A stretch of DNA of 64,000 bases from contig CALXVS010000004.1 in assembly GCA_944392145.1 (NCBI GenBank), forward strand, positions 5,833 to 69,832. Reading direction: 5' to 3'. Below, in pieces: positions 10,663 through 61,139 of this stretch. A program made the translations under genes and the position numbers. The stretch's first letter is position 1. Every line of letters begins with the position of its first letter. The stretch comes from an uncultured Alphaproteobacteria bacterium (GTDB taxonomy: Bacteria > Pseudomonadota > Alphaproteobacteria > CAAHEQ01 > UBA3637). The notes under the pieces are model-generated. The model did no database searches, was not told where the DNA came from, and saw only the letters and a list, made by a program, of their open reading frames with translations.

Positions 10663-10677
10663 GCCCCTTTTCCCACC

Positions 10678-11448: not shown

Positions 11449-11621
11449 ATCTTATCCCATTCTTTTTTCTTACCTGCATCGCCTCTCATTTAAGCTTACA
11501 GCAAAAAACTGATACTGGTAAATACTTGAATAATCCTCTTTACCGGCGCTTTCACCCTTTGAGCTCAAACAAACAACTTTTTTCATATTTTTTATTTCTA
11601 TCAGCAACATCCTTATCCCCT

Positions 11622-12392: not shown

Positions 12393-12401
12393 TTTCTTTA
12401 C

Positions 12402-13601: not shown

Positions 13602-14260
13602 TCTACCCCCCCATTACCCGTTTCAGGCGCTTTTAGGGCATCGCCAACATTATATTGAATGGCACTGCTTTGAATAGACTGAGCCGCAATATCAATCAAA
13701 ACAGCCGTATCCCTTGCCAATTGAATCGTTGACAAAGACAAAACCGTAATCATATCTTTTTCCGTTGTGGCGGTCTGAATCCGCTGGTTCAGTTGATTTA
13801 TCTGATCTGGCAATTGTGCAGCACTCATTGAATAAACCCACGCATTGGCCAACCCTGTCATTCCCAGTTCTTTTTCGGCGGTGGCCTGATTTGTCCGAAC
13901 CGACTTCATCTGAGACATATCAACCTTTGACGTATCTTTGGGAACTTGCATGTTTTCTTTAATATTTGCTTTGGCAACGGCCGGATTTTTTTTATCTTCC
14001 GCACTAACACCGGGCACTTCCGGTTCGGCGGGTTCCAACAACGACTCTTTTAAAAAATCTATCCCGGGAACACCCAATTTCCCCAAACTATTTAAAATAC
14101 CGGCCAACGTTTGATCCAATGCTTGGCGCTTGGCTTCATTTCCCATTTCTGATGCCTTTTGCCCCGAAATTTGAACCAATGCTTGTGAATCCTGAACATT
14201 TTGGGCATAAGAAGGGAATCCCAACAAAAAAACAGCTAACGCGATTATGACTTTCTTCAT
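13598..14260 (-). CDS. Secreted protein (~220 aa), unknown
   Basis: Probable start MKKVIIALAVFLLGFPSYAQ; the ORF-track start further upstream looks like an extension. ATGA overlap with the neighbouring gene. Confidence 0.3.
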   Translation of the reverse strand: MKKVIIALAVFLLGFPSYAQNVQDSQALVQISGQKASEMGNEAKRQALDQTLAGILNSLGKLGVPGIDFLKESLLEPAEPEVPGVSAEDKKNPAVAKANIKENMQVPKDTSKVDMSQMKSVRTNQATAEKELGMTGLANAWVYSMSAAQLPDQINQLNQRIQTATTEKDMITVLSLSTIQLARDTAVLIDIAAQSIQSSAIQYNVGDALKAPETGNGGVE

Positions 14261-14634
14261 GAATCGGTATTCTCCTTTGTCGCAGTAACAGCACTTAAGG
14301 CACTGGTTGCCTCCATATGCGCTTGATATGCTATCAAGGTGAAAAAATCTATTTCCAACCACAAAAGTGTGATATCTGCCCCCGTCAGTGCCTTTAAAGC
14401 ACTTCGCTTATCCGTAGAAGCATTCTGAATATCCTGCTGCACTTTTTCCGAATTTCCCAAATACTCTTTGGCTAACTCGGAACGATTCAAAGCCTGTGCC
14501 AACGCTTCGGCAGTTACCTCTTTTGTATCGGGCAACTCGGAGGTTTCTTCCGTCTTTGTTTGAGCGTAAGCAACACCCGCCGACAAAAGAACCACTAATA
14601 TGATCCAAAATCTCCCTCGCATTACACTCACCAT
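14257..14634 (-). CDS. Secreted small protein (125 aa), unknown
   Basis: Signal peptide (ILVVLLSAGVAYAQT). Confidence 0.3.
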   Translation of the reverse strand: MVSVMRGRFWIILVVLLSAGVAYAQTKTEETSELPDTKEVTAEALAQALNRSELAKEYLGNSEKVQQDIQNASTDKRSALKALTGADITLLWLEIDFFTLIAYQAHMEATSALSAVTATKENTDS

Positions 14635-15877: not shown

Positions 15878-17028
15878 TGATAAACAATAACCGCTAACCG
15901 TTTATACCCCGTCAACAACTTATCTGACAACAGAGCCATTTGTTCTAACCGTGCTTGTTCTTTTAACTCCTCCAATGATGGAACCAATTTGCGTTGTGTT
16001 TCCTCGCATTTCATAAAATACATGACACCACTCTCAACCGTCACAGGCCCCGCCAAAGTGCCTGTTTTTAGTGGGGTCAGCAATTCTTTCAACGGAACAG
16101 GCAACTGTGCCGGTGATACCATACCGCGTTGTAAAGAACCGGGAAAAGCAGTTCCCTTCGCATGCATCTCAAATGTATCACATCCTTTAATGGGGGCTTC
16201 AAATGGTAACGGGAAAGAAGCCTGAACCACATCCCAAATATCAACATAATCCCCTGTTAAAGGGGCTTTTTTGTCATGAATCGCCACAATTAACCACCCT
16301 TTGTCAGTTTGAATCGGATCCGACAACTGTCCTGCATCCAACTTATCTAACACCGCCCAAACAGCCGCTCCATAATGCGCCGGCCCGATTTCACCGACAA
16401 AGCCCCCCTCTTTTTTCGTCGGCGCAATTGAATATAATCGTGCCAAATCATCAAAACGGGAATCTTTTAACCCTTCGGCCACCGTGCGTATTGTTGCTTC
16501 ATCTGCCACCAAAATTTCCGATACAATAGCTGCCGGCATCGCCAAAATCTTACGAATTTGCTCTTGTTTTTCCTTTAATGCTGCTTCAGAAACCTCAAAT
16601 GCATCTGTGCGATTCTTTTGCAACACTTGTAACCACAGTAAATCAGCTAAAATCTGATCTGTTAAGGTATTCAAAGCAATCCCGCGCTCTGTCAATGTTT
16701 TTGCAAGATCCCCTACTGCCATTTTGTTTTGCTGTTCTAAATGCCGAATGGCTTCCTGAATATCTGCTTCAGACACTGAAAATCCCTGTTTTAATGCAGC
16801 TTGCTTTTTAACAGCTTCCTCTATCAACATATCCAATACACGCCTTTGAATGGCCGCTGCAGATAAATTGTTAAATTCGCCGGGCTGTTGCAACCGAATC
16901 AATTTTGTTCGTTCAACAACATCAAAATTGGAAATCGGCACATCATTGACCGTCGCCGCAATTTTACCAGCCAATGCCGGCGATACCATAATCAAACTAC
17001 CAATAAAAAAAGCCGCGATTATCCTCAT
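15874..17028 (-). CDS. surA: Periplasmic chaperone / peptidyl-prolyl isomerase SurA
   Basis: Signal peptide; SurA N-domain and parvulin-like region. Immediately downstream of lptD (ATGA overlap), the canonical lptD-surA linkage. Confidence 0.8.
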   Translation of the reverse strand: MRIIAAFFIGSLIMVSPALAGKIAATVNDVPISNFDVVERTKLIRLQQPGEFNNLSAAAIQRRVLDMLIEEAVKKQAALKQGFSVSEADIQEAIRHLEQQNKMAVGDLAKTLTERGIALNTLTDQILADLLWLQVLQKNRTDAFEVSEAALKEKQEQIRKILAMPAAIVSEILVADEATIRTVAEGLKDSRFDDLARLYSIAPTKKEGGFVGEIGPAHYGAAVWAVLDKLDAGQLSDPIQTDKGWLIVAIHDKKAPLTGDYVDIWDVVQASFPLPFEAPIKGCDTFEMHAKGTAFPGSLQRGMVSPAQLPVPLKELLTPLKTGTLAGPVTVESGVMYFMKCEETQRKLVPSLEELKEQARLEQMALLSDKLLTGYKRLAVIVYH

Positions 17029-19175
17029 TCCATGCCCCCCAACGTTTTTAAAATAAACTTCACCATAAACGAAGTATCTCCTTTATAATCTCTATCTCGC
17101 GTATAAGAACGGCTGACATCAAATAAAATGCCTAAACACTCATTATCATACCTGGCCGTCACATCAAAACTGACCGGCCCGCCTGTCTTTCCCAAATTAT
17201 AACGGTAAGATCCTGCAAGTGTCCAATTTTGAGAAAATTTTGATGCTCCGTGTAGAACAATTTCTTCTCGCGACGGATAAAATGTATCCCCCATCTGCTC
17301 GCTTTTTAAATAGACATATTCAATGCCGACGCGCAAGGGGGCTGTTCCAGCCCATGCCTCAACCTCATGTTTGTTAGGGGTCAGGTTATCCTGATCCAAA
17401 CGAAAATGATATGCCAATGAAACCGGACCGTAATTCATTTTGATACGACCGACATAATCCGAAAAATTGGCATTATAGCCCATCAGAGCCCCCAAATCAT
17501 CATCTTTACGAAACCGATAAGATTGCCCGAATAACGTTGAAACCGACCGATTTTCCCGATCATACAATGCCCATTTGATACCGTAATTCAGGCGTGTCCC
17601 CGATTCAACCCGATCATAACCGGCAAAACGATTACGTGAAAATAAATTTGTATCATCAAAATCATAAATCAAACTGTCCATGTTAGGAATTTTTTTATCG
17701 TTACTGCCGTTCGGAGCAACAACACCCATCACAACGGGCTCTAATATCTGCATGACCCCCGTATCCGATACACGTGAAAGCGGGTAGCTTACCGTTGCCG
17801 AAAAACTGGGAAAAAAACGCCCTGTCACATAGGAATCATCAGCTTTGACACCCGTAAAACCATTTCTTCCGGAATCAATACTGTAACCGTCGGCACGAAT
17901 TGTTCCAACCATATCAACGGTCGCCCCAAAACCGGAAACATACGGCATCTGAAATCCTTGTGTAACAGATAAACGATTTGATTTAAAATGTTCTTTCGTA
18001 TTGATCAATGCCGCGTTAATATGCGAAAAAGCTGTTAGTCCTCCAGCCGTCAGCGGCAATGACGTCCGATAATAATTAAAAACCGGTAAAATGGTCGGAA
18101 TACTGTCGGATGAAACACCATCTTCTAAACTTTGAAAAGAGAGCCCACGCGCATTAAAATACACCCGTTCCCCAAAATATTCGGCCGTTGCATGCGAAGT
18201 TAAAAACGAATCGCTGTCATCTATCCCCTCAATATCATACCGCCGAAAATAAGTATCACTGGACACTTTAAACAATTCACCGGATAACCGCCAATCAGAG
18301 GTTAAATCATACACCCCCGCCGCACGGATGTGCCCTTGCTGTGACCCATCATCATCTCGTGTGCCACTTAAAGCCATTTTCAGTCCTGCTTTTGAAAAAA
18401 GCCCCTGATAATCCATTTGAATCAACGGATCATGCGTAACGGAAAGTGTGGGCGAAACAGTTAAATTTTGATTGGGAGCCACATCTATAAAAAAAGGCAG
18501 CGTTATTCCCCCCTTCATTGTTGACCCGTGGGATAAGCCCGGCGCCAAAAAACCCGTCTTACGTTTAACTGTATGATCCGGCATGCTTAAATAGGGGAAA
18601 TAAAACACAGGCACCCCACTCACATCAAAAAAAGAATGTTTAAAAACATACGCCTGATCCGGTGCATCATGCCGCATTTGCTTGGCACGTAATTGCCATA
18701 ACGGGTCTTTCCCCTCACATACATCACAAGGTGTATAACGTAAATTATTTAAATCTAAAATCGTCCCGCGTTCTTTTCGCTCTACATTTTCAGCTTTAAT
18801 TGTTGTTCCATCGGCCAACCGCATTTCAATCATTTTGCCTACCAATGCCGTCATATCGGCCGACAGCGTCATTTGCGCACTTTGTGTCACCGTGCCATCG
18901 GGTGAAATCAACGTTACTTGATCGGGCGCAAAAATTTGATTTTTACGTCGGTCAAATAAAATCCGTGGTGTTTTCAATACCGTTTTGTTTTGCGTGACAA
19001 TCACATTTCCCGTTGCCGTTACTACATCGTTTTGTGCATCATAAGCGATTGTGTCGGCTTCAAAATCAACGGGTTTATTTTGATTAAATCCATCAAAATC
19101 CGGTCGTGGCACGGCCAATGCCGATACAGATATCAGGCAAGTAACCACAATCGGTATTAACTTTTTGAAAAACAT
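17025..19175 (-). CDS. lptD: LPS assembly outer-membrane protein LptD (716 aa from internal Met 'MFFKKLIPIVVTCLISVSALAVP')
   Basis: OstA/LptD-like N-domain followed by a large beta-barrel with the C-terminal aromatic motif. Its own signal peptide starts at the internal ATG (revcomp of 19173-19175). Confidence 0.8.
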   Translation of the reverse strand: MFFKKLIPIVVTCLISVSALAVPRPDFDGFNQNKPVDFEADTIAYDAQNDVVTATGNVIVTQNKTVLKTPRILFDRRKNQIFAPDQVTLISPDGTVTQSAQMTLSADMTALVGKMIEMRLADGTTIKAENVERKERGTILDLNNLRYTPCDVCEGKDPLWQLRAKQMRHDAPDQAYVFKHSFFDVSGVPVFYFPYLSMPDHTVKRKTGFLAPGLSHGSTMKGGITLPFFIDVAPNQNLTVSPTLSVTHDPLIQMDYQGLFSKAGLKMALSGTRDDDGSQQGHIRAAGVYDLTSDWRLSGELFKVSSDTYFRRYDIEGIDDSDSFLTSHATAEYFGERVYFNARGLSFQSLEDGVSSDSIPTILPVFNYYRTSLPLTAGGLTAFSHINAALINTKEHFKSNRLSVTQGFQMPYVSGFGATVDMVGTIRADGYSIDSGRNGFTGVKADDSYVTGRFFPSFSATVSYPLSRVSDTGVMQILEPVVMGVVAPNGSNDKKIPNMDSLIYDFDDTNLFSRNRFAGYDRVESGTRLNYGIKWALYDRENRSVSTLFGQSYRFRKDDDLGALMGYNANFSDYVGRIKMNYGPVSLAYHFRLDQDNLTPNKHEVEAWAGTAPLRVGIEYVYLKSEQMGDTFYPSREEIVLHGASKFSQNWTLAGSYRYNLGKTGGPVSFDVTARYDNECLGILFDVSRSYTRDRDYKGDTSFMVKFILKTLGGME

Positions 19176-20261
19176 TCCCAACCGTCTGCCGGTCATCAAA
19201 ACATAAACCAAACCGATCGGAACCACGGCATTTAACACCATCATCGGCAAAAACCACAAGTTTTTACCGGCCATATTTTCAAAAGCCAACGCCAACGATT
19301 GAACCATTAACGCAGCCACAACGGCAGCATTGATACGTCCGATCTGACCACGGCGGTTATAATGCCCCGATAAAACACCGAACACCGCCAAAAAAACAAA
19401 CGTAAAATTATAAAGCGGTTGAACAAGCCGCTTTAATGCTTCAACTTTATACTTACGATAATGTGACATGTTCGGTGTATCTGCCGGTGTTGCCGATAAC
19501 AATTGACGCATATCATATTCGCGAATATCACTGCGCCGCTCACCGGTATTATCCCGGTCACTGAACCACATGGTATACCGGTCAAATTTCAAAACGGAAA
19601 ACTGACGCGTTTCGGGATTAAACTCTTGACGCGTTCCCTCTTGAAAAACAACCTGAATACCGGTATCTTCCTGAAAAATTGTTCCTTTTTGTGCAATTAA
19701 TGTTGCCACTTTTTTGGGATCTTTGGCATCATAGGCGATGACGCCCCGCACCGTGCCATCCTTGGCGCGTTCACGAACATAAAGGGTCAATCCGTTTTTA
19801 AAGGAGTTAAATTGTCCCTCCTGCAACAATAAATGTGACAGATCATTTCTGACTTTCCACTTTAACTCACGCAAATCCGTGTTGGATTGAGGAATCAACA
19901 CCAGTGTTAAAAAATATCCCACTCCCGCCAACACAACCGCCAACATCAGCGGGGCCGCCATAATCTGACGTCGGCTCATCCCGACAGCCTGCATAACCAT
20001 CAACTCTTTATCCGACTGCATCCGCGAAAAAACAAATAACACAACGGCAAACAAAGATAACGGTGATAAAATTTGAATAAAATTCGGCAAAACCAAAAGC
20101 GTCATTTTTAAAAAAACACCCACGGATACACCCTTGGTCACAATCATGTCCAACATCCGAAGCGATTGTGTCAGCCACACCAACGTTGTCATTCCCAATA
20201 AGACAACAACAAAGCCGACAATCAACTGTTTTAAAACATAGGCGTTTAAAATTTTCATCAA
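19176..20261 (-). CDS. lptG: LPS export permease LptG/LptF family (YjgP/YjgQ), 362 codons with no stop codon before lptD
   Basis: Six-TM permease (MMKILNAYVLKQLIVGFVVVLLG…). Reads in-frame into lptD ('…LMTGRRLG|MFFKK…'). Confidence 0.7.
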
Positions 20262-27985: not shown

Positions 27986-28140
27986 AGCGTTACAAAAAGG
28001 TTCCTTTTTTTGCAACCGTTTTTTTATGTTTTTTGAAAAAAAATAAAAAACAAGAAAATCCCTTAAGAATCAATCTGTTTTTTAAAAAATATCCGATAAG
28101 TCTTCTATCCGTTTGGACGGCGTTACAAAAAGGAACCTTT
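27986..28140. promoter_or_regulatory. Two copies of a 22-bp motif GCGTTACAAAAAGG-WW-CCTTT (27986-28007, 28119-28140) upstream of 28193 gene; candidate operator
   Basis: Direct repeat, each with an internal palindrome AAAGG-WW-CCTTT. The second copy is ~53 bp upstream of the ATG. Confidence 0.3.
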
Positions 28141-28192
28141 ATGTTACACTGCTAAGCATCTGTTTATACGTATCATAACGGGGGTTAGTATC

Positions 28193-29449
28193 ATGAAAAA
28201 AGACGTAACATCACAAACAATTTTATCCACAGACACCGGTCGCAGCATGGTAGAGATGTTGGGCACGTTGGCGATTGTGGGAGTATTAAGCATTGCCGGG
28301 ATTGCCGGATATCGGTATGCGATGGATAAATACCGCGCGAACGAGACGATAGATGAACTGAACAAACGGGCGTTTGTGTATGCCACACAGGTTTTAAATA
28401 ACGAGATACGGTCCGGAGAAACTTTAAGCAACGGCGAGTTTGGGAATAAAACCGCTTTGGGATATGATATAGAAGCGAACAAATCATATTATCCGGACGA
28501 ATTTGAAGTAACGTTAAGCAATTATCCGTCAGAGGTATGTCGTGATATTTTAAAAAATTACATGATACCGTATCAGATTATCGTTTCGGGGAAGGTTTAT
28601 GATCCGACATCAGATAATTATAGCATATGTGGAGAAGACGGTGAAACGGCCCCGGAAACGTTGTTTGTGTATACGGCGGATTTAAATCAAGAAAAAGAGG
28701 TTTTTGAAGAAGTAGAAGAAGAAGAAGTAACAACTTTTTATTACGATGAGGTCTGCACACCCGGTGAGGAGTTTGCGTCACAAGGCCAATGCTATCCGTG
28801 TGACAGCAGTGGGAGCTATTATATCGGCGATCAGTATGAATACGAATTGTGCCGCGCGTGTGGACGCCGGATGCCAGTTGGAAATTATTGCGTTCCGGGG
28901 TGCATGGCGGGACAGGTATATCATGCCGATAAAGAGGAATGTGTAACGCCCGAGTGCGTAACGAACAGTGATTGTGGTATAGGTAGTGGGAAATATTGTA
29001 AGTTGGATTCAAGCCAAAACAATTATTCCTGCACGGAAGCGCCGACGTATGGCACGTGTGAGAGCACCTCGGGCACACCAGTAACAGTTATCGGCGTTGG
29101 GAGATACCAAAAGTCCGGCAGCGGGATGAACTGGTGGAGTGCACAGAACTATTGTGAGGCGATTGGGGGACGTATGGCTACGGTTGCTGATTTTGGCTGC
29201 GGCTATGATTATGTGGGTGCAGGTAAGACGGGGTATTGCAATACGGATACAACAACGTCTTCAAGTGGGACACGCTCTGCTAATATGCAGGCGTTCCAAT
29301 CGGACAGTGCCTTTGGTAAGAGTAATTATTATTGGACAAGCGATTCGTATTCTGCGTGTTACGCTTACAACGTCCATCTGCACAATGGTAGCGTGCGCAA
29401 CGACAATCGCAGCCTCAGCACCTACGCTTTGTGCCGCGTCGGGGATTAG
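28193..29449 (+). CDS. Secreted protein with type IV prepilin-like N-terminus, Cys-rich middle and DUF1566/C-type-lectin-like C-terminal domain (418 aa)
   Basis: Leader MKKDVTSQTILSTDTG followed by RSMVEMLGTLAIVGVLSIAGIAGYRYAM (pilin-like hydrophobic helix with Glu at +5). ~25 Cys in the central part. C-terminal 'MNWWSAQNYCEAIGGRMATVADF…YYWTSD…ALCR'. Confidence 0.5.
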   Translation: MKKDVTSQTILSTDTGRSMVEMLGTLAIVGVLSIAGIAGYRYAMDKYRANETIDELNKRAFVYATQVLNNEIRSGETLSNGEFGNKTALGYDIEANKSYYPDEFEVTLSNYPSEVCRDILKNYMIPYQIIVSGKVYDPTSDNYSICGEDGETAPETLFVYTADLNQEKEVFEEVEEEEVTTFYYDEVCTPGEEFASQGQCYPCDSSGSYYIGDQYEYELCRACGRRMPVGNYCVPGCMAGQVYHADKEECVTPECVTNSDCGIGSGKYCKLDSSQNNYSCTEAPTYGTCESTSGTPVTVIGVGRYQKSGSGMNWWSAQNYCEAIGGRMATVADFGCGYDYVGAGKTGYCNTDTTTSSSGTRSANMQAFQSDSAFGKSNYYWTSDSYSACYAYNVHLHNGSVRNDNRSLSTYALCRVGD

Positions 29450-31489: not shown

Positions 31490-32539
31490 ATGTCATTTTT
31501 AAAACAACTGAAAAATAAATTGTTTGTTACGGGTGCTTTCGTTGTAGGGGCTTCTGTCGGTTCAATCGGTGCCGTAAAAAAAAATGCACCCGAGTCTGCG
31601 TCATCAGTTCAAACCGCCACTGCACCGCAAAATGCCACAAAAAAAGAGGCCTTAATTAAAGCTTTCATGGCAACAATTGACAAGTTTGAAGGAATGTCTC
31701 TACATCCTTATTTGGATACAAAAGGGAACTTAACCATCGGATATGGTCAAAATATTCAATCGGCAGCGGCATTCGCTCAAGTTCGGTTTCAAGGGGATGC
31801 AAATATAAGCGACACACGCATTTCCCTTATGGAAAAACGAGCAAAATTTATGAATACTGTCACCAACTGGAAAACCATTCGGCAAAAAAACGGGCATTCA
31901 ACTAAAATCTTTAATGTAACAGCCACTGGACAAAAAGACATTTTCGGATCTGTTCGCATTACAAAAGCGGAAGCCAAACGATTATTGAAAAATCATCTGG
32001 CTGCCATTTTACCGGTTTTGGAAAACAATTTAAAATCCCAAAAATTGGATTTATATGCTTTGCCAATAATGGCACAAGTAGTCTTGTTGGATATTCACTA
32101 TAACACCGGCAATACGGCACCGGCGAAATGGCCCGCCCTGTATCAAGCATTAAAAGCCGGTGACTGGGAAAAAGCCGCCCGTGAATCCGCCCGCAAAGAT
32201 GTTCAATCCGCCCGTAATTTATGGGCGGCACGACAAATGCGACTGGCGGGGTTAACCCTTGAACTAAACCGTGCCGGCATTTCCTATGAACAACTGCCTG
32301 TGCCAACACGTGATGTAGTCAATTATATGTCAGCAATTTTAAAAAATCGTCTGACGGCACAAAAATGGCCCAAATTTTTTGATGCCCTTAAAAAACAAAA
32401 TTATACGGCCGCTGCCGCCGAATGTCGTATCCGCGGCATACCCGAGGCTAAAAACATTTGGATGAAAGAGCGCATGCTTGAAGCGGTTGCACCAAGTACA
32501 ACACAAACATATTATTTAAATCGGACTTGCTCCCGATAA
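31490..32539 (+). CDS. Secreted phage-type (GH24-like) lysozyme-domain protein with C-terminal extension
   Basis: Signal/TM, then 'IDKFEGMSLHPYLDTKGNLTIGYGQNI' (lysozyme catalytic block). Confidence 0.55.
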   Translation: MSFLKQLKNKLFVTGAFVVGASVGSIGAVKKNAPESASSVQTATAPQNATKKEALIKAFMATIDKFEGMSLHPYLDTKGNLTIGYGQNIQSAAAFAQVRFQGDANISDTRISLMEKRAKFMNTVTNWKTIRQKNGHSTKIFNVTATGQKDIFGSVRITKAEAKRLLKNHLAAILPVLENNLKSQKLDLYALPIMAQVVLLDIHYNTGNTAPAKWPALYQALKAGDWEKAARESARKDVQSARNLWAARQMRLAGLTLELNRAGISYEQLPVPTRDVVNYMSAILKNRLTAQKWPKFFDALKKQNYTAAAAECRIRGIPEAKNIWMKERMLEAVAPSTTQTYYLNRTCSR

Positions 32540-33789
32540 CATTCGGAGGACCCATGGCAAAAACATCTTCCATTTCTCCCAAAAAACAGCAAGATCAACT
32601 AACCGATCAATTATATTTGGCTGTTCAAACAAATAACGTAGCAGCAGCCGCTCGGTTAATTGAGCAAGGTGCCGATGCCAAGTGGTCGCATACATGTCGT
32701 TTTGATAAAGGGGATACGAAACCGAATGAAAGTTTGCTCAGCATCGCACTTAACAATAAAAACACAGACATGATGCGCTTGTTAATCAAACATGGGGCGA
32801 ACACAAAATTCCGCACCATTGCCGGCATTGTTCAAACGAATGATAACGAAATAATTGTTCAATATGAATCCTTATTACGCCAAGCTGCCAAAATAGATGA
32901 TCCTGTTTTTGCCGAAATTTTGATAAAAAACGGAGCCCCGATCAACGATGAAGAGGCGGAAGGGGCAAACGGTACAGCATTGTTTGATGCCGTGGCGCAA
33001 GGATGCCTAAAAACAGCGGCACTTTTGCTTGAAAACGGGGCACATCCGGGGGCATGTGCTTTACCAACACGGGAATTTATGAACGGTCGTTTTAATATGC
33101 GTCAAATTCCTTTAGGGGAAGCCGTGCGCCGTGGCGATTATGACATGACCTGCCTTTTATTACATTATGGCGCTGCCCAATATATCAATGATGATATTCG
33201 CACAACTTTAATCCATTTGGCGGCAGAGGGAACAAATAAACCTCTTGAAGCGATGTTGTTGGAAACACCACAGGATTTAAACGAAGCCTTTCAATTAATT
33301 CAATTCCGTAACCCCGATTGGGCACGACATTTAATCAATAAAGGGGCTCAAATCGGTTTCCCCGTTGATATTGGCAAGTGTCAGGAAGAGTATTTTATGG
33401 GACTGCAACAAGTTCCCGTCCAAATTGCATTGACCAGTCCCTTGGCCCGTGCCATCAAAGCCCAAAAATATGATATTGCCCGCTTGATGATCAAAAAAGG
33501 GACCAATTTGAATGTGGATGACTTAATCCATTTACTTAAAACAAAAAACTTTGATACTTTTTCAAAGGTTACACGCGGCAACACGCCCCTTTTAAAACAT
33601 CATGGTCATTTGTTTTTAAAAACCGTTCACCGTTTAATACATCCTCCTTACGAGCGTCGGCCGGATAAAAAAGCAGCCTTGTTTTATAAGTCATTATCCC
33701 GTAAAATAACGCTTTTAAATAAAAAAGAGGTGCAACATCCGTTATCCCGAAACACGGTGCAACAAAAACGGTTAAAAGTGCGTGAATAA
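32527..33789 (+). CDS. Ankyrin-repeat protein (420 aa), effector candidate
   Basis: Multiple 33-aa ANK-like units (…LLIKHGANTKF…, …ILIKNGAPINDE…GTALFDAV…LLLENGAHPG…). Confidence 0.6.
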   Translation: MLPITFGGPMAKTSSISPKKQQDQLTDQLYLAVQTNNVAAAARLIEQGADAKWSHTCRFDKGDTKPNESLLSIALNNKNTDMMRLLIKHGANTKFRTIAGIVQTNDNEIIVQYESLLRQAAKIDDPVFAEILIKNGAPINDEEAEGANGTALFDAVAQGCLKTAALLLENGAHPGACALPTREFMNGRFNMRQIPLGEAVRRGDYDMTCLLLHYGAAQYINDDIRTTLIHLAAEGTNKPLEAMLLETPQDLNEAFQLIQFRNPDWARHLINKGAQIGFPVDIGKCQEEYFMGLQQVPVQIALTSPLARAIKAQKYDIARLMIKKGTNLNVDDLIHLLKTKNFDTFSKVTRGNTPLLKHHGHLFLKTVHRLIHPPYERRPDKKAALFYKSLSRKITLLNKKEVQHPLSRNTVQQKRLKVRE

Positions 33790-33797
33790 AAATATCA

Positions 33798-34340
33798 TTA
33801 TGGTATTTGTTCTAAATCACACTTACCCGCATCACGAAAAAAATTATAAATCGTTTTAGAACTGACTCCCAACACACGGGCGATTTGTGTTTTGGGTATG
33901 CCGTTTTCATGCATGCGTAACACATCCTTGACCTTTCCATCCAAAACATGAATCTTGTTCTTACTTTCGTTCCGCCGTCCCAGCGGTCGGCCCTTGGCTT
34001 TTAAACGACGCAAAGCTTCTTTTGTGCGCTGACTGATAAATGTGCGTTCTATCTCGGCAACAAGCCCGAATGCAAAGGCAAAAACCTTGCTTTGAATATC
34101 CGTCCCTAACTTATAATTATCTTTAATCGTCCAAATCTGAATCTCTTTTTGCATACACAAATGCAAAAATGTCATAATTTGAAATAAATTACGTCCAACG
34201 CTCGTTTTTCAAAAGATAAAGCCCCACTGACCGTTTCCATAACCCATTCATCAATGCAAATATCCTGTCGTCGGCAAAAATTCTGAATCTCAAACCGTTG
34301 ATTCTCAAGCGTTTGTTTATCCGTACTGACACGCAGATAT
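33798..34340 (-). pseudogene. Frameshifted small serine recombinase (resolvase/invertase)
   Basis: Manual translation: N-part MIYGYLRVSTDKQTLENQ… (catalytic Ser) ends at a stop after 59 aa. C-part in a different frame = ORF 33798-34175 with 'GLVAEIERTFISQRTKEALRRLKAKGRPLGR' and an HTH domain. 59+125 aa = normal resolvase length. Confidence 0.6.
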
Positions 34341-35115
34341 CCGTAAATCATACTTTTTCTCCAATATATATAAAATGTTCAATCTTATATATATGAATAC
34401 CCACCCCTAAATTGCAAATACTCCGGATAAAATATTAAATATCAATAAAGGTAAAAACAAAAATCCGGTATTTTTGGCGGTTCAACCATATTTAAAAACA
34501 ACTCTCATATAACCATATATATTTATTATTAAAAATTAAAAACAAACGTCTGCTTATTTTGATTTTTTTTAGAACAATAGATTAATAATTTTTAAATGTA
34601 TTAACGAATATAAAATGATCCACTGAAAAAAATCAACAGGTAATTTTTTTTAAATAAAGACATCCTTATTAATTATAAAAGCTCTTTATCTTATGACATT
34701 ATCAATCTTTCTTTGATAATAATTAAATTTTATACCCTATAATAATGGAAAGAAGGATAATACAATTCCCCTGTCGTATTTTGGTATAATTAACGAAAAA
34801 ACAATCAATATTTTTGTCAAATCTTTACAAAAAAAGTGATTGATAAAAAAAGAAAAATATGTTTAAATGAAAAAAATAACATCGACTCAAAAGAAATATC
34901 TCGAAAACCAGAAAAACTTTTTAAAAACAAAGGAAGTATAAAAACATGAATGAAACCGACCAACGTATGGTTAAAATATCGGGTATGTTAAATCGGGGAG
35001 GAATACCTGTAACCGACATAGCAAGTTAGCCGGTTACGATGAATCAATATTGTGTGAACAAGATTTGAAAAAAATGATACAGATTAAACTATATAAAAAA
35101 TCAAAAAGAATATGT

Positions 35116-36366: not shown

Positions 36367-37242
36367 ATGGAGAATGCATTGAAAAATCACTTAATTGAAC
36401 TTGAAAACGAGTCTCTTGAATTAATCAGAGAGGTGTGTTTTACAAATGACTTTGATAAAATCGTTGTTTTGTATTCTATCGGAAAAGATTCTTCCGTATT
36501 ACTGCATTTATTTCAAAAGGCCTTTTACCCTTTTCCGATTCCCGTTCGCTTTATGCATATTGATACCGGTTGGAAGTTTAAGGAAATGTATACGTTCAGA
36601 GAAAAAATCAGTAAAGATATCAATCTGATTGTTTACAAAAATCCCGAAAATTTAAATCCGTTTACGGACGGATCTCGGTATACAGAGATTATGAAAACGG
36701 AAGCATTAAAGCAGGCTATTGAACAATATGGTTTCAAAATCGCTTTCGGTGGAGCACGACGGGATGAGGAAAAAAGTCGTTCTAAAGAAAGAATGGTTTC
36801 TATCCGTGATAAATATCATAAGTGGAATCCCAGAAATCAAAATCCTGAAATATCTCCGCTGTGGAATACGTATTATACAGAAGAAACGGAATTACGAGTT
36901 TTCCCATTATCTAATTGGACGGAATTAGATATATGGGAGTACATCAGACAGGAAAACATAAACGTTGTGGATTTGTACTTTGCGAAAGAGAGAAATGTTG
37001 TAAAAACACCCTCCGGTATGTATATTGCGACACAAGATAAGCATAAAGGAGAAAAACGCTCTGTTCGCTTTAGAACGCTCGGATGTTATCCGTTGACCGG
37101 TGCTGTTGAATCCGAAGCAAAAAATGTGGATGACGTTATAGAAGAATTAAAAACGGCAAAATATACCGAACGTATCACACGTGTCATTGACTATGATACG
37201 GAAGGTTCTATGGAAAAGAAAAAAAAGGATGGGTATTTTTAA
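36367..37242 (+). CDS. cysD: Sulfate adenylyltransferase subunit 2
   Basis: PAPS-reductase/ATP-sulfurylase small-subunit blocks ('[15 protein letters not shown]', '[10 protein letters not shown]'). Confidence 0.8.
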
Positions 37243-38453
37243 TGGATAAGATTTTTTCTTTTATATGTTGCGGAAGTGTTGATGACGGAAAATCTACGCT
37301 GATCGGCAGATTATTGCTTGATTCGGGAAACGTAAAAATTGATCAGCTGCAAGAGGCAGAAAAAATATCTAAAAGAAACGGCTCAAACAGAACGGAATTA
37401 AGCCTGTTATCTGACGGCCTGTTAAGTGAACGGGAACAACAAATTACAATAGACGTTGCACACCGTTATTTTGATTATAACAATATTCGTTTTCATATTT
37501 TAGATTGCCCGGGACACAAACAATACACAAGGAATATGGTCATTGCCGCGGCCATGACAAATACGGCTCTTTTAGTGGTTGATTGTATGGGAGGTATTCA
37601 AGAACAAACACTAAAACATATTGATATCTGTTCATTATTAAGGGTTCAAAATCTGTGTATTTGTATTACAAAATGTGATTTACTGCAGGGAGATTTGCAA
37701 GACAATCCGATTCTTAAAAACCTTTGTAAAAAAATTGAAACCCTGATGAAAAAGTATAATTTTAACTATACAATCATACCGATTTCTTCTGTCAGCGGTT
37801 ATAATATTGATAAGGTTTTTAACCAAATATATACTTATGCGCAAGAAGTTTTAGAGACACAGAATAAAAAATGTATTTTACATATCCAAGCAGCTCGATT
37901 ATCAAAGGATACTCGTTTTTATTATGCCAGGGAAACAACTCATACGTCTCCTGAAAAAGGAGAGAATTATACCTTATACCCCGCAAATATCGGCGTCGGA
38001 ATCAGTAACGTAACCGGTCATGGTGTTTTTAATATTGATTCAGATATTGATGTTGAAAGGGGTGATTGTATTACAAATACCCCTGTTCTTGTTCATAACA
38101 TCCTAAAACAAAAAACGATTTGGTTTAATGAACCATCCGAAGATATGTTACTGAAACATGGAACCAGAATCGTTAAAATTAAAAAATATACCGATGATTT
38201 AATTGAAACGGATGATGTTATCATTTTTAATGACATTGATGATATCAAAGAAAACGGATTTGCCGTCATTATTGATAATAAAACAAAAAGAACAATCGGA
38301 TGTTGTGTCTTTATTGATAACAAAAGAAGCAATCAACAAACGACAACACATAAAAATGAAGATGAAAGCAAGAAACAAAAATTAAAAAGTATATTAGCAA
38401 GTCAGGGATTTTCACAAGCTGATATTAATAAAATGATTGCGAGCATCAAATGA
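37242..38453 (+). CDS. cysN: Sulfate adenylyltransferase subunit 1 (GTPase; no APS-kinase domain)
   Basis: G1 'GSVDDGKST', G3 'DCPGH', G4 'TKCD'. Translationally coupled to cysD. Confidence 0.7.
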   Translation: MDKIFSFICCGSVDDGKSTLIGRLLLDSGNVKIDQLQEAEKISKRNGSNRTELSLLSDGLLSEREQQITIDVAHRYFDYNNIRFHILDCPGHKQYTRNMVIAAAMTNTALLVVDCMGGIQEQTLKHIDICSLLRVQNLCICITKCDLLQGDLQDNPILKNLCKKIETLMKKYNFNYTIIPISSVSGYNIDKVFNQIYTYAQEVLETQNKKCILHIQAARLSKDTRFYYARETTHTSPEKGENYTLYPANIGVGISNVTGHGVFNIDSDIDVERGDCITNTPVLVHNILKQKTIWFNEPSEDMLLKHGTRIVKIKKYTDDLIETDDVIIFNDIDDIKENGFAVIIDNKTKRTIGCCVFIDNKRSNQQTTTHKNEDESKKQKLKSILASQGFSQADINKMIASIK

Positions 38454-39046
38454 GATATATATTGTTTTTTCTGTATCTGCTGTTTCCATTCTGTGTGAAT
38501 GCCGATATTTCTTACATTACAGAACCGTTTGACAGGGAAAAATGTAAAAACGGAATGGCGGATCGTTGGGATAATGCATGCAAATGTCCAAATTTTTCAG
38601 AGTATGACGGTCAGTATTGTGATAAAAAAGAAATGAAACAATGTAAAACAAATCGAGATTGCCCAAACGGATCTTATTGTTATCTTGTTAACCAAGAGGG
38701 CGTATGTCATGAATTAACGGTATATGCTCCTGTTTTATACAATCAGAAAAAATTTTTTCTTTCCGGAGAAATTTTAAATTTAAAATCCGCAGATAATTTA
38801 TGTTCTGCCTTAGGTGCTCGTTCCTTAACAAGAGAAGATTTGGCGTGTAATCGGAGTGGTCCGGGATGTCTTGATACGGATACGATTATTCATTTACAGG
38901 AACATGTCGGAATTTTAGGATTTTATTGGTTGGAAAATGAAAGAAATAAATTTTATTATTTTGATATCAATGACGGAACCGTCTACTTTTTAGATAAGGA
39001 TTCTATCAGTCATATGCAGGCAATTTGCATTCTTGAGGACAAATAA
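38450..39046 (+). CDS. Secreted Cys-rich protein with DUF1566/C-type-lectin-like C-terminal half (198 aa)
   Basis: Signal peptide. 12+ Cys. '…ADNLCSALGARSLTREDLAC…GFYWLEN…AICI' resembles the C-terminus of the 28193 protein. Confidence 0.4.
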   Translation: MRYILFFLYLLFPFCVNADISYITEPFDREKCKNGMADRWDNACKCPNFSEYDGQYCDKKEMKQCKTNRDCPNGSYCYLVNQEGVCHELTVYAPVLYNQKKFFLSGEILNLKSADNLCSALGARSLTREDLACNRSGPGCLDTDTIIHLQEHVGILGFYWLENERNKFYYFDINDGTVYFLDKDSISHMQAICILEDK

Positions 39047-39047
39047 A

Positions 39048-40769
39048 ATGAAAAAATTTTTCATAATTATCGCATTATTATCAGGCTTTGCCATTCTATC
39101 GTTTTTCTATTTACAATTTGGTATTATTTCAAGTTTAAATATAAAAGTTAATCCATATGGATTTTCCCCTTTAACGGCATTAATTGACATAGAAACCAAA
39201 ATACCGACATCCGTTTTTTTAAGAGTAAAGGGGAAAAACGGGGTTGCCGATATTACAAAAGAATTTTCCGATTTGACAACAAAACATAGTATTCCGGTAT
39301 TGGGATTATATTTAAACCAGGAAACTGATGTCATTTTGACCGTAAAAAACAAAAATTTTTCAAAAGAAATTCCTTTAAAATTAAAGACAAATTATAAAGT
39401 AAGACTCCCTGAAATACAAATTGAAAAACAAACATCCGAAAAAAATACTTATTATTTTTTAGATGAAGGCTTAATCATTGATGAAAATGGAGATGTTCGT
39501 TTTATTTTTGATAAACCGAAAAATAGAATTAAATATTATATGAATGGTGAAATTATTACAGAGAACCGAATTAGCGGTATTATGCGCTTTGATTTATTGG
39601 GCCGTAACATTCGAAATTATCGTTATCCGAAAGGATTTACTTCATTTACCCATGGACTGGGGATTAAACCAAACGGCAATTTATTTGTAATAGGTGGTTT
39701 TTCAAATAAATCTCTTTTATATAACGGTGAATGGGTTCCTTCCCACCGCGAATTCGTCATAGAATTGGATGCCATAACAGGGGAAGTTGTCAATAAAATA
39801 GATTTGGCAGAAAGATTAAATCCTTATCGTTCAGAAATTGTTTCAGCCCCTTGTATTGATTACGGTATCAGTGATTGGTGCCATATTAACGGTGTAGATT
39901 ATGATGCAACGGACGACAGTATTGTTATCAGTTGTCGGCACTTCGGCATGTCTAAAATTGATCTTAAAACAAATAAATTAAAATGGTTGATTACACCTAA
40001 TATCGGTTTAAATATTTCCGGACGGGATGGTAAAAGCGGAGATATTTCAAATAAAGTTTTAACTGCAGTTGACTGGCAGGGAAAACCGCTTCCGGATGAT
40101 TTCCAAAAAGGACTAAAGGCTGATAAAGAATTCAGATGGCCTACAAAAAATCATCATCCTTCCGTCATAGATGGAAAATATTTTTCAATTTTCAATAATG
40201 CCGGAAATGTCTTTAATAAAAAAATATCATCAACAACCGATGCCAATGCGTTAATTTATTATGTAGACGATAAGGAAAATACAATTAAAAATATCTTTCA
40301 GTATCAATTAAATTTTCCATCGTCTGCGGCCGGGGCCGTAACTTATATACCGGAACAAAATACTGTTACAATTTATATTGCGGATGCACAACGTGAGAAT
40401 GACCAACGTTTGACAGATGGATATATTTATGTTATTGATTTTTCCTCTTATGAAATTTTGTTTAAAGCAAGGATCCATAGGGGTGGAAAAAATTATTTTT
40501 ACAAAGCAACACCCTTCAGTTGGTATACGGATGACGCTTTAAAAGTAATATCCGATATACATCAAGATAAAGAAACTTATCTGTATTTTAATCACAAACA
40601 TTGGAATGATTTTGTGTCAATAAAAAATGATAAGTTAATTAGAAATAATGGCGATACCGCTCGTATAATATCCAGAACGGATAATGAGATTACCGTTAAA
40701 TGGGATAAATACGGCACGGAAACTTTTGTGAAAGATGACTTGGGATATAGTTTGAAACAGAATAAATAA
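39048..40769 (+). CDS. Periplasmic arylsulfate sulfotransferase (ASST family) beta-propeller protein
   Basis: Signal anchor. Conserved '…DWCHINGVDYDATDDSIVISCRHFGMSKIDLKTNKLKW…' block typical of AssT. Immediately after cysDN. Confidence 0.6.
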   Translation: MKKFFIIIALLSGFAILSFFYLQFGIISSLNIKVNPYGFSPLTALIDIETKIPTSVFLRVKGKNGVADITKEFSDLTTKHSIPVLGLYLNQETDVILTVKNKNFSKEIPLKLKTNYKVRLPEIQIEKQTSEKNTYYFLDEGLIIDENGDVRFIFDKPKNRIKYYMNGEIITENRISGIMRFDLLGRNIRNYRYPKGFTSFTHGLGIKPNGNLFVIGGFSNKSLLYNGEWVPSHREFVIELDAITGEVVNKIDLAERLNPYRSEIVSAPCIDYGISDWCHINGVDYDATDDSIVISCRHFGMSKIDLKTNKLKWLITPNIGLNISGRDGKSGDISNKVLTAVDWQGKPLPDDFQKGLKADKEFRWPTKNHHPSVIDGKYFSIFNNAGNVFNKKISSTTDANALIYYVDDKENTIKNIFQYQLNFPSSAAGAVTYIPEQNTVTIYIADAQRENDQRLTDGYIYVIDFSSYEILFKARIHRGGKNYFYKATPFSWYTDDALKVISDIHQDKETYLYFNHKHWNDFVSIKNDKLIRNNGDTARIISRTDNEITVKWDKYGTETFVKDDLGYSLKQNK

Positions 40770-48203: not shown

Positions 48204-48243
48204 ATCCGAAAGGATCAAAAAAGGGAAAGTTGATAATGCGTAT

Positions 48244-49690: not shown

Positions 49691-49709
49691 GCTAAATTAG
49701 GAGGCTCGT

Positions 49710-58511: not shown

Positions 58512-58561
58512 CAAGGAGTTTGTTAATGATTACCCCCCCCATGCAAATCACGAAACAATAA
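58512..58561 (+). promoter_or_regulatory. RBS (AAGGAG) + 11-codon mini-ORF (58526-58561) containing a C8 homopolymer (58533-58540) upstream of the Cys-rich gene
   Basis: ATGATTACCCCCCCCATGCAAATCACGAAACAATAA. A -1 change in the C tract fuses this ATG in frame with the downstream ORF. Confidence 0.4.
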
Positions 58562-58619
58562 TATCAATACTCGCAAAAGTTTAAAAAAATCTTTTTTTTC
58601 CTTTCAATCAGGTCGGAGC

Positions 58620-61139
58620 ATGATAGAGATGCTGGGAGTACTGGTTATTGTAGGTGTATTGAGCGTAGCGGCATTATTTGGATTTACCTATGCGATGAAC
58701 AAGTATAAAGCGAACGAGACGATTCATGATGTGATGTTACGTGCTTCGAATGTCCCGATGATAGATGAGTATTATCAGATACGACCGACAAATTATGCAT
58801 TTAAATTTCCGGATTTACAGGATGAGTTGTCTTCTATGGGGTATACGATGAAGACATTAAAGACGGATGAATTTGGGTATGTGTATAAGGTGGAAGCCCC
58901 TTCGGTGCCGAGACGGATATGCAGTTTAATTTTACAGATGGAACCGACGGACATAGATGAGATCCGGATAGGGACGGAGAAGATATTATATACGGCGGGA
59001 CATTCAGAGCTATGTGAAGAGTACAAGGATAGTTCAACGGAAAGCACGATGATGACCTTTTACTTTGAACGGGGTTGTGAGACGAATGCGGACTGTAGTA
59101 AGTGTCAAGAATGTTATCAAGGTCGTTGTAAAGCGAACTATGATTTACCGGGATGTGGAGAACCTGTAGAATGTAATGGAGATGATGATTGTCCGGATGG
59201 TTTATGTTGTCGTGATGGTTCTTGTACGACGAATTGTGGTATAGAAACATGTGATCCACCTTGTGATGAGTGTCACACATGTGATGAGAGTTTGCGTCAA
59301 TGTATTAAGAATACTTGTTCTATAGAGAGTTGTCCTGAGGGGCAAGAAGCGAGTGGCTATGATAAGTGTGGATGTATAGAAGGCTGTATAGAGAAGTGTC
59401 CAGATTTGAAGTGTAATGAGGAATGCACAGTCCCGAATTACGACACCTGTAGTTGTGAGGCGGATTCGGATCCCTGTTGTGGGTTCGAAGGAGCTGCGTT
59501 GACTTGCTGTCTAGGAGGATTGAGTTGCACGGAGCCGTGTCAAGAGGCGAATTACGAGAGTTGTACCTGTGAACCGAAGGTTTGTACATTAGAATGTAAA
59601 GAAGGGGAAGAAGCGACGGGGTATGATAGTTGTGGCTGTCCGACGGGTTGTTCTCGTCCGTGTACAGATGATTGGGAGTGTAATGGGTTTTGTTCAGTTT
59701 GTGAGGGAGGATATTGTGTAGATAAGACGGAGCAACAAGATATATCGGAATGTTGTGATGGTAGTTCATACACGAGTTGTTGTCCGTTAAATGGGAATAA
59801 TTGTGGTTGTACGCCCAATACATGTGCTTTAGTTGTTTCAGAGATACCGGTTGGTCAAGAGGCCTGTTATGAGAATGTTCCTGAAGGAGGAGAGATATGT
59901 GGTGAAGTCTGTTCTGGAGGGTATAAGAAGAAAGCGTGTCCGAGTGGGGATCATTGTCCTGAAGGAGAACGAGAGATAGGGCGAGATGAATGTGGATGCC
60001 CCTATTGTGAACCATGTCCTGATGGTGAATTTTCTTGTGGGACGGAATGTTGTAATGCTGCTAGCGAAACTTGTTGTGGAGGGAGTATTTGTTGTCCGGT
60101 AGGGCATGCCTGTTGTGAAGGGGTATGTTGTGGAGAGGGGCAAACTTGTGGAAATAATGGTGTTTGTTGTTCTCCTTGTGAATTGACATGTTTAGGACAA
60201 GGCTTAGAATTAGACGCTTGTGGGTGTCCGACTATTTGCGGTTGTGATGATGAAAAACAATGTCGTGCAAATGAAATCACTGAAGATGACAATATTGACT
60301 GTTGTGAATTTGTAGGCGGTGTTTACCATGATAACCATTGTTGTTCAACAGATCTTCCTTATTGGTCTGACGAAGAAAAAAAATGTGTAAAATGTTTAAT
60401 TGATCAGCATTGTCAAGAACGGAAGGATGGAAAAATAAGGTGTAATCAAGAAACAAAAATATGTGAATGTCCGGAAGATAAACCTTATTTTTCAGGAGAA
60501 AAATGTGTCGAATGCTTAAATAATGCAAATTGTTCAGATAGAACGGACGGAAAAACGCAATGTGATACAGAAACTTATACTTGTATTTCTGGTTGTATTT
60601 CTTTAGGAGAAACATGTGAAAAAGACAATGGAGAAGGTGGCCTTTGTGTTAAGGAGAGCAATTCTTCTTCTACACTTGTTTGTTGTTCAGTTGATAAAAT
60701 GGTTGTGAAACTTAATGGCATCGGATGTCCAGCTTCTCCACCAAATCAATATAAAGAATGTTGCGAGGATGGTAAAGTTTATCGTCCTAAATCAGTTGGA
60801 ACTGGTTGCTGTCGTTCTCCTAATGTTTGGATGTCGTCTGTTTCTTCTCTTTCTTTTTCCTCTAAACACTGTGATATTCCTCTTCCAGATGAGTATTTGA
60901 TGAGATCATGTTGTTGCCCTGGTCTAAATTATATTTGTTCTGAAACAGGAGATTGTGTAAAGATAGATGAAGTGGATGATATCGGAGAATGTACAGAAAT
61001 ATGTACAAGGACTGATAAGTTGTATAAAGTTTGTTGTAAAGGTGGAACGCCGACACAAACAGCAGGTGGATGGTATAGCTGTCCAGGATGTGAATGTACG
61101 GAAGCTTTATTGCCGGAAACTTGCTCCTTTGGTGGTTAA
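58620..61139 (+). CDS. Giant cysteine-rich protein (839 aa from first ATG) with type IV pilin-like N-terminal helix
   Basis: '(GRS)MIEMLGVLVIVGVLSVAALFGFTYAMNKYKANETI' homologous to the N-terminus of the 28193 protein. ~120 Cys (~15 %) in CxxC, CC and CxC arrays. AGA/AGG/ATA-rich codon usage unlike the core genes. In-frame upstream extension to 58530 lacks a canonical start. Confidence 0.6.
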   Translation: MIEMLGVLVIVGVLSVAALFGFTYAMNKYKANETIHDVMLRASNVPMIDEYYQIRPTNYAFKFPDLQDELSSMGYTMKTLKTDEFGYVYKVEAPSVPRRICSLILQMEPTDIDEIRIGTEKILYTAGHSELCEEYKDSSTESTMMTFYFERGCETNADCSKCQECYQGRCKANYDLPGCGEPVECNGDDDCPDGLCCRDGSCTTNCGIETCDPPCDECHTCDESLRQCIKNTCSIESCPEGQEASGYDKCGCIEGCIEKCPDLKCNEECTVPNYDTCSCEADSDPCCGFEGAALTCCLGGLSCTEPCQEANYESCTCEPKVCTLECKEGEEATGYDSCGCPTGCSRPCTDDWECNGFCSVCEGGYCVDKTEQQDISECCDGSSYTSCCPLNGNNCGCTPNTCALVVSEIPVGQEACYENVPEGGEICGEVCSGGYKKKACPSGDHCPEGEREIGRDECGCPYCEPCPDGEFSCGTECCNAASETCCGGSICCPVGHACCEGVCCGEGQTCGNNGVCCSPCELTCLGQGLELDACGCPTICGCDDEKQCRANEITEDDNIDCCEFVGGVYHDNHCCSTDLPYWSDEEKKCVKCLIDQHCQERKDGKIRCNQETKICECPEDKPYFSGEKCVECLNNANCSDRTDGKTQCDTETYTCISGCISLGETCEKDNGEGGLCVKESNSSSTLVCCSVDKMVVKLNGIGCPASPPNQYKECCEDGKVYRPKSVGTGCCRSPNVWMSSVSSLSFSSKHCDIPLPDEYLMRSCCCPGLNYICSETGDCVKIDEVDDIGECTEICTRTDKLYKVCCKGGTPTQTAGGWYSCPGCECTEALLPETCSFGG

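Follow-up and report, generated by a model that had tools for sequence, protein, structure and literature searches.

A gene on the forward strand at positions 28193..29449 of the window, a stretch of 64,000 nucleotides from contig CALXVS010000004.1 of an uncultured alphaproteobacterium (assembly GCA_944392145.1), appears to encode the precursor of a modular type IVb-like prepilin, with its expression placed under a cassette of about 130 bp that an Mpi-family invertase could flip; we give this reading a probability of about 60%. The adhesin head of the prepilin, a C-type-lectin-like domain (CTLD), probably sits at the pilus tip, and expression of the gene most likely is, or was, under the control of an Mpi-type invertible cassette. 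The locus combines two known kinds of system, namely modular type IVb pilins and Mpi invertons.

The open reading frame (ORF), which encodes 418 amino acids, is present and translates just as an earlier, sequence-only reading of this DNA had it. That reading had described a prepilin-like N-terminus followed by a cysteine-rich module and a DUF1566/CTLD-like domain, an arrangement that is supported at the level of fold and motif by matches of the N-terminal profile in the PDB and by an operon in a related locus, both described below. The number of cysteines had been put at about 25 but is 20: the pilin head holds 2 of them, the Cys-rich module 13 and the C-terminal domain 5. The parts of the protein are as follows, with confidence given as the predicted local distance difference test (pLDDT) where it is low.

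28193..28240, forward strand: leader peptide, residues 1-16 (MKKDVTSQTILSTDTG), ending in Gly at -1; predicted class III (prepilin) signal leader, pLDDT below 50.
28241..28687, forward strand: pilin module, residues 17-165, opening with the invariant RSMVEMLG (Arg at +1, Glu at +5) and made up of the alpha-1 helix (residues 22-69) and a beta-sheet head (residues 92-161), with conserved Cys at 116 and 146.
28688..28747, forward strand: acidic disordered linker, residues 166-185 (EKEVFEEVEEEEV...), pLDDT below 50 at residues 168-185.
28748..29062, forward strand: Cys-rich module, residues 186-290, with 13 Cys, including the conserved knot C-x-TN-x-DC...YC.
29081..29446, forward strand: CTLD, residues 297-418, of the compact Lcl_C / natural killer (NK)-receptor type.

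The evidence for a pilin begins at the N-terminus, where the class III leader with Glu at +5 and Arg at +1 was borne out by comparison with homologs. The residues directly after the leader are RSMVEMLGTLAIVGVLSIAGIAGYRYAM, and Gly-1, Arg+1 and Glu+5 (Gly16 and Glu21 of the protein give the first and the last of these) are invariant in all 121 homologs that carry the region. Their consensus reads (E/D/Q)(S/T)G↓RSMVEMLG(V/T)LAI(I/M)GVLS..GGIAGY, with the arrow at the predicted cleavage site, and the first 36 residues of the family N-terminus are extremely conserved. Leaders in homologs are mostly 7-18 residues long, compared with 16 here. As expected of a prepilin, Gly-1 and Glu+5 are accompanied by about 20 hydrophobic residues (MLGTLAIVGVLSIAGIAG), whereas the residue at +1, usually hydrophobic or small, is Arg throughout. 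Furthermore, Cys116 and Cys146 are invariant or nearly so in homologs and fit the predicted C-terminal disulfide of the pilin fold.

An AlphaFold2 model built on an 81-sequence alignment (mean pLDDT 81) shows a disordered leader (residues 1-17), a 48-residue helix (22-69) and a beta head (92-161), followed by the disordered acidic linker (168-185), the Cys-rich region (186-290) and a compact domain (297-415) with a pLDDT above 90. The long alpha-1 helix lies on an antiparallel beta-sheet, as in the pilin fold, and structure comparison of the head returned CofA and TcpA, i.e. type IVb pilins, and not GspG-K. When a sequence profile of the N-terminal module was compared with the PDB, seven of the eight matches were type IV pilins or geopilins (8tob, E 0.0023; TcpA, E 0.053; FimA, PAK pilin, PilA and geopilins), the eighth being a marginal match to an engineered protein with no domain above threshold. 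The alignments to these pilins are registered at Glu5 and, for TcpA, through the conserved Cys. Among 81 relatives, one family member also matched PilS_N, the Pfam type IVb pilin N-terminal domain.

With regard to the C-terminal half, structure comparison of the compact domain found dozens of CTLDs among its matches, in agreement with the lectin-like fold that had been suggested. The curated DUF1566 model reached less far: Lcl_C (PF07603/DUF1566) in Pfam gave E 0.017 and 15.9 bits against a cut-off of 34.9, covering residues 361-413 only. The score stays below the gathering threshold, and 1 of the 81 relatives matches at E<0.01. For the Cys-rich module, only weak EGF/Dumpy-like matches were seen among curated families.

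The protein belongs to a large family. A homolog search returned 630 proteins, nearly all unnamed and from metagenome-assembled genomes (MAGs), and at least 567 family loci emerged when one genome of each species was scanned. Apart from two, the 80 loci listed belong to MAGs labelled uncultured Alphaproteobacteria or proteobacteria, frequently with several loci per MAG, and the named sources are human, ruminant and rabbit gut. The pilin module alone (residues 1-170) matched 4,884 clusters (50% identity) with an E-value of 1e-3 or lower, 1,099 of them with 1e-10 or lower, in proteins about 120 to 1,000 residues long. Mature lengths among the fetched loci fall into a short class of 113-160 residues and a long tail to about 1,600; members of the short class, often in tandem, carry a C-terminal Cys pair and resemble major pilins. 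The family consists of many paralogous pilins of uncultured gut Alphaproteobacteria, with a common N-terminal module and differing C-terminal modules. No description of a G↓RSMVEMLG pilin family was found in the literature searched. Reduced-genome gut Alphaproteobacteria have been described as encoding many hypothetical membrane proteins, possibly for cell-cell interaction (PMC12306168).

As the sequence-only reading had remarked, no pilus assembly genes are nearby: none for a type IV pilus or a type II secretion system (T2SS) was found among the window ORFs scanned, a subset of all its ORFs. The neighbours of the gene include RsmI, an LpoA-like protein, CTP synthase, a lysozyme-like protein and an ankyrin protein, and no constant neighbour gene was seen across the 80 related loci. 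In one related MAG (locus L061), a family member beginning MTSKNTVQSG↓RSMVEMLG directly follows an R64/TCP-like type IVb pilus operon with the order TcpQ, PilN-type secretin (TIGR02520, E 1e-81), PAP_PilO, PilP-like protein, T2SSE and T2SSF. Operons of this type are widespread in these MAGs and recur in loci L102-L105, where neither a pilin nor a peptidase adjoins them. The platform protein of the L061 operon has more than 1,000 close homologs, and the few with a named source are from Alphaproteobacteria MAGs, with one exception. A TrbC/VirB2 gene adjoins the pilus operon in L102-L104.

In the proposed mechanism, a prepilin peptidase would cut after Gly16, and the alpha-1 helix starting with RSMVEMLG would insert the subunit into a type IVb pilus. 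An R64- or toxin-coregulated pilus (TCP)-like machine encoded elsewhere (TcpQ/PilM, PilN secretin, PilO, PilP, PilQ ATPase and PilR platform) would build this pilus. The CTLD subunit would most likely sit at the tip as an adhesin, since its C-terminal Cys-rich stalk and CTLD head are bulky. An Mpi-family invertase could flip the cassette between two inverted sites upstream of the gene and so govern expression. The elements that would make up this switch are the following.

27989..28016, forward strand: site 1, GTTACAAAAAGG-TT-CCTTTTTTTGCAAC, an imperfect palindrome of two half-sites of ~12 bp with a central TT at 28001-28002.
28017..28121, without strand: cassette spacer, carrying at its distal end the A/T-rich phased-tract element ttttttatgttttttgaaaaaaaataaaaaac.
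28122..28147, forward strand: site 2, GTTACAAAAAGG-AA-CCTTTATGTTAC, an imperfect palindrome with a central AA at 28134-28135.
33798..34351, reverse strand: gene for a serine DNA invertase of the Mpi family, broken by a 64-bp deletion that shifts the frame when compared with an intact syntenic ortholog in locus L084.

Two copies of a palindromic motif had been reported upstream of the gene and proposed as a promoter element. Both copies are there: the motif GCGTTACAAAAAGG(TT/AA)CCTTT lies at 27987-28007 and 28120-28140, with 3 matches at <=3 mismatches, the third on the reverse strand and overlapping the second copy, and no match in 100 dinucleotide-preserving shuffles. They are better described as an inverted pair of imperfect palindromes of about 26-28 bp, the orientation being inverted because the central AA of site 2 is the reverse complement of the central TT of site 1. 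The promoter idea gives way to that of recombination sites for an Mpi-family serine invertase, in view of the inverted centres and of related cassettes that are flipped. The sites resemble the hix-type sites of the Hin and Gin invertases, with their 2-bp crossover centre. A sigma-54 promoter (GG-N-GC) in site 1 was rejected on inspection, as its spacing is wrong and it lies about 200 nt upstream of the ATG.

Seven copies of this window-type cassette were collected, from the window, L081, L082, L084, L107, L108 and L109, the six other contigs having been found from proteins P0002, P0003, P0005, P0010, P0011 and P0013. Apart from the A/T-rich element, the spacer is 91-100% identical in the seven copies, which lie in at least five genomic contexts, and it is conserved above the level of the coding sequence. 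The contig of P0009 has a different upstream region without the cassette. The assemblies of L082, L107 and L109 end 230-365 nt upstream of the gene, just beyond the cassette, and in sample ERZ24773292 the paralogs L084 and L109 carry the same cassette at similar coverage; contig ends beside the cassette may reflect repeats or orientation heterogeneity, and are no proof of either. When the flipped state was looked for directly in metagenome contigs from JGI, an exact 24-mer from the window spacer had no match, and a protein-based scan found distant relatives only, at 29-39% identity.

The same architecture occurs upstream of other family genes, with two matching sites 115-142 bp apart that end 50-130 nt before the Gly codon. 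Inverted repeats of at least 20 nt were present upstream of 14 of 97 family genes, compared with 1 of 97 control genes. Site sequences vary across cassettes (cores GGATCC, CGTACG, GGTACC and GACGGTCGTC) yet always match within one cassette, and the central dinucleotides are reverse-complementary within a cassette (TT/AA in the window, GT/AC in both L043 and L061). Several cassettes share a AAACGTACGT core, which appears to match the Bacteroides fragilis inverted repeat (IR) consensus.

Related cassettes have been found in opposite orientations. Within MAG E20__bin339, identity between the spacers of L001 and L008 is 90% in reverse orientation and 59% forward, and the right flank reaches 97% in forward orientation; within MAG Lapin-026__bin93, the spacers of L055 and L068 are 95% identical in reverse and 22% forward. 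The asymmetric A/T-rich element is gene-distal in 10 cassettes and gene-proximal in 2. The L008 spacer holds TTGACA-N17-TAAAAA directed toward the gene, which faces away in L001. In L006, a single cassette lies between a divergent pair of short pilin genes (69% identity, the first 48 residues being the same), an arrangement that could act as a toggle between two major-pilin variants. At this locus (L006 8930-10209) the cassette is about 110 nt from each pilin start, and a perfect 36-nt inverted repeat spans both start regions.

A candidate invertase for these sites is encoded near family genes. In L084, the syntenic ortholog of the window locus, an intact 202-aa serine recombinase lies 4.4 kb downstream; its score with the NCBIfam model NF009949 ('master DNA invertase Mpi family') is 276.7 bits, where the cut-off is 272. 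In L040, L042 and L043, homologs of this recombinase are the immediate upstream neighbours of family genes and point away from them.

Several observations weigh against a modular type IVb-like prepilin under an invertible cassette, as regards both the pilin and the switch. For the 418-residue protein, TIGR02532, a check that had been suggested for the prepilin N-terminal methylation motif, and PF07963 (N_methyl) gave no match at E<=1 in NCBIfam and Pfam; none of the 81 relatives matches PF07963 at E<=0.01; and, to our knowledge, no characterised pilin has Arg at +1. Since the curated-family hidden Markov models (HMMs) fail, pilin and CTLD membership holds at the level of fold and motif only. 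No A24 prepilin peptidase, looked for as a GxGDxK motif or a suitable ORF with several transmembrane segments, turned up in the window or across the 1.36 Mb of related loci, and the flanks of the pilus operons in L102-L105 held no peptidase gene. The association of a family member with a pilus operon was seen in a related MAG (L061) and not in the window. No EPN/QPD or WND motif for Ca2+ and carbohydrate was seen by eye in residues 297-418, so the domain does not by itself point to lectin activity; both the tip location and the ligand are inferred. The silent N_methyl models, the missing peptidase, the assembly genes that do not adjoin the gene and the atypical Arg+1 would all suit an uncleaved signal-anchor, which would make this a type II inner-membrane protein that exposes the Cys-rich/CTLD part to the periplasm or at the cell surface and forms no part of a filament. 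Such an anchor seems improbable, as a plain one would have no need of an invariant G-R-S-M-V-E-M-L-G with Glu+5, the hydrophobic segment is continued by an amphipathic helix that lies against a beta head like those of TcpA and CofA, short family members resemble classical major pilins, and one member occupies the pilin slot of the type IVb operon in L061. More improbable still is a T2SS pseudopilin or T2SS-related component, to which the name of one relative, P0071 ('type II secretion system protein [Alphaproteobacteria bacterium]'), and a weak NCBIfam match of the 418-residue protein to a prepilin-peptidase-dependent protein (E 0.059) would point. The associated machinery bears type IVb hallmarks (TcpQ, PilN-family secretin, PAP_PilO and PilP) without a Gsp C-M set, the structural matches are to type IVb pilins rather than GspG-K, and dozens of paralogs per genome with adhesin-like modules misfit a pseudopilus.

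As for the switch, the tblastn match to the window invertase is split over two frames, its C-terminal part being 96% identical to the L084 ortholog; the 64-bp deletion has removed part of the catalytic domain and shifted the frame, leaving a pseudogene, so that the switch may be locked. Furthermore, the window-type cassette has an identical orientation in all seven contigs, and a sigma-70 consensus scan of the window spacer found no clear promoter. Inversion at the window locus is proposed by homology, since only related cassettes have been seen flipped. The broken local invertase and the uniform orientation would also agree with the palindromes being paired operators of a dimeric regulator that loops the DNA around a promoter, as would the imperfect palindrome within each site and a spacer conserved above the coding sequence, as expected of a regulatory region. 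In this alternative, site 1, which is followed by a T-run, might also form a hairpin that weakly terminates transcription of the LpoA-like gene upstream; a terminator scan found nothing. Paired operators are unlikely, though a more serious contender than either a signal-anchor or a pseudopilin. The sites differ across paralogs while matching within each cassette, a pattern more in keeping with partners in recombination than with one regulator. In addition, the central dinucleotides are asymmetric and, in the two sites, the reverse complement of each other; homologous cassettes occur in flipped form; and Mpi-family invertase genes adjoin cassettes. All three rivals are less well supported than a modular type IVb-like prepilin under an invertible cassette.

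Among the closest known systems are the type IVb pilins, such as TcpA/TcpB of Vibrio cholerae, CofA/CofB of enterotoxigenic Escherichia coli (ETEC) and PilS/PilV of R64 and Salmonella Typhi, with which the protein shares a Gly-ending leader, Glu+5, an alpha-1 helix of the VLxIxGVxSxG type and a head fold matching CofA and TcpA. The machinery in related MAGs has TcpQ, a PilN-type lipoprotein secretin, PilO, PilP, one ATPase and one platform protein in common with type IVb systems. Large minor pilins with added C-terminal binding domains, such as CofB and PilV, are known (see PMC8179133). In contrast to the known type IVb pilins, in which the +1 residue is Met, Leu, Trp or Ser, the family has an invariant Arg+1 and its members fail the N_methyl HMMs. 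The extra module is here a Cys-rich stalk with a CTLD, the peptidase gene is not in or beside the operon, and the family has dozens of dispersed paralogs, whereas R64 has one pilV diversified by a shufflon. The new features are the host lineage, the unrecognised pilin signature with its invariant Arg+1, and a multi-gene repertoire where R64 has its shufflon.

Modular type IV pilins have also been characterised in Streptococcus sanguinis, where PilB carries a vWA module and PilC a lectin module (Raynaud et al. 2021, PMC8179133), and the authors hold that numerous modular pilins go unnoticed, their modules having no signature in the databases. Our reading of a prepilin with an adhesin head, probably at the tip, takes up the case made in that work. 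In both, a linker connects the pilin module with a binding module, which is taken to be exposed at the tip. The S. sanguinis pilins are defined by the IPR012902 motif, are type IVa-like and come from a monoderm; the present family does not have the IPR012902 motif, and its module is a CTLD placed after a disulfide-rich stalk. The C-terminal domains of Lcl of Legionella (PF07603/DUF1566) and of the Bd2740 fibre of Bdellovibrio belong to a collagen-like or trimeric fibre, whereas here the domain is part of a pilin. For the switch, the model is B. fragilis, where one global invertase, Mpi, inverts seven capsule promoters (PMC12632263). The two are alike in having a serine recombinase of ~200 aa, which in L084 passes the NCBIfam Mpi cut-off, and short, IR-flanked, promoter-sized segments upstream of many dispersed surface-structure genes. 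They differ in that the host is here an alphaproteobacterium, the targets are pilin genes and not capsule loci, the spacers are shorter (about 115-140 bp) and the window-type cassette has been seen in one orientation.

Two further genes of the window had been linked to this one, and both links hold in part.

58526..61139, forward strand: giant Cys-rich modular pilin-like protein, a second family member in the window, with a pilin-like N-terminus.
38450..39046, forward strand: small Sec-type secreted protein with a Cys-knot and the start of a CTLD; the N-terminus reads as an ordinary Sec-type one.

The ORF at 58620-61139, which had been called a giant paralog, shares the pilin-like N-terminus (57% identity over 53 aa) but has no lectin-like end. 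A good Shine-Dalgarno sequence and ATG at 58526 are out of frame with GRSMIEMLG owing to a run of eight C at 58533-58540 (a C8 tract); with a single C less, the frames would join and give a leader of 31 residues. The gene may thus be a pseudogene or vary in phase by strand slippage; no evidence for slippage was seen, the tract being identical in a second sample (L106). The protein at 38450-39046, which had been taken for a smaller lectin-like Cys-rich secreted protein, shares with the CTLD pilin the Cys-knot and the CTLD start (BLASTP E 7e-8) and nothing more. It is the third gene of a coupled operon with overlapping stops and starts (36367-40769, forward strand) that encodes CysD, CysN, this protein and an arylsulfotransferase; the operon, which places a lectin-like protein among sulfation genes, is kept in L084.

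The window also contains a complete diversity-generating retroelement (DGR) at 47610-51659, with the following parts.

47610-48203: bAvd-like ORF.
48243-48361: template repeat.
48611-49690: reverse transcriptase.
49868-49986: variable repeat.

Mismatches in the variable repeat fall almost only at template adenines. The variable region is unusually near the N-terminus (aa ~53-92) of a 649-aa protein with a P-loop (LHGPSGVGKS), followed at 52134-53972 by a DUF2201 metallopeptidase/VWA protein. DGR targets often have CLec folds; the CTLD of the gene at 28193-29449 was rejected as a variable region, as the sole partner of the template repeat is 49868-49986 and none lies in the gene.

Elsewhere, a VirB9/CagX-like gene and two VirB8-like genes (5507-9001), followed by five ORFs without a Pfam match, occupy 5507-14362 on the reverse strand, which is probably a type IV secretion or conjugation cluster. 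One 1,078-aa ORF at 17025-20261 (reverse strand) fuses an LptF/LptG permease domain with the N- and C-terminal domains of LptD, an unusual joining of inner- and outer-membrane parts of lipopolysaccharide transport that is kept in L084. A long array of degenerate 51-nt (17-aa) repeats at 1-4800 (reverse strand) is probably part of a very large repeat protein running off the window. Ankyrin-repeat proteins recur near family genes (31490-33789, forward strand, in the window, as well as L076, L006 and L011), and in the window the ankyrin ORF at 32527-33789 adjoins the lysozyme-like protein; such repeats may hint at host interaction.

The pilin-module family, at about 4,900 clusters at 50% identity, is missed by the standard pilin and lectin HMMs, and surveys of type IV filaments or modular pilins that rely on IPR012902 therefore overlook it. 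It offers an explanation for many of the 'hypothetical membrane/surface proteins' of uncultured gut Alphaproteobacteria, and an Arg+1 without exception is of interest for the limits that prepilin peptidases and filament packing set on this residue. The switch would extend Mpi-style inversion of multiple promoters from Bacteroides capsules to the pilus adhesins of a different phylum. More tentatively, and with the odds somewhat against it, the G↓RSMVEMLG proteins with Arg+1 may form a new pilin class of a type IVb pilus, in which the major subunit and dozens of modular tip adhesins are each switched by Mpi-type promoter inversion. If true, these small-genome, possibly partner-dependent cells would have a combinatorial, phase-variable adhesin repertoire, similar in function to the PilV shufflon of R64 but assembled from whole genes, which might serve attachment to host glycans as these change, or to other bacteria, whether partners or prey. 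The diagnostic motif, the site architecture and the invertase provide concrete targets for tests of host and microbe attachment in gut bacteria.

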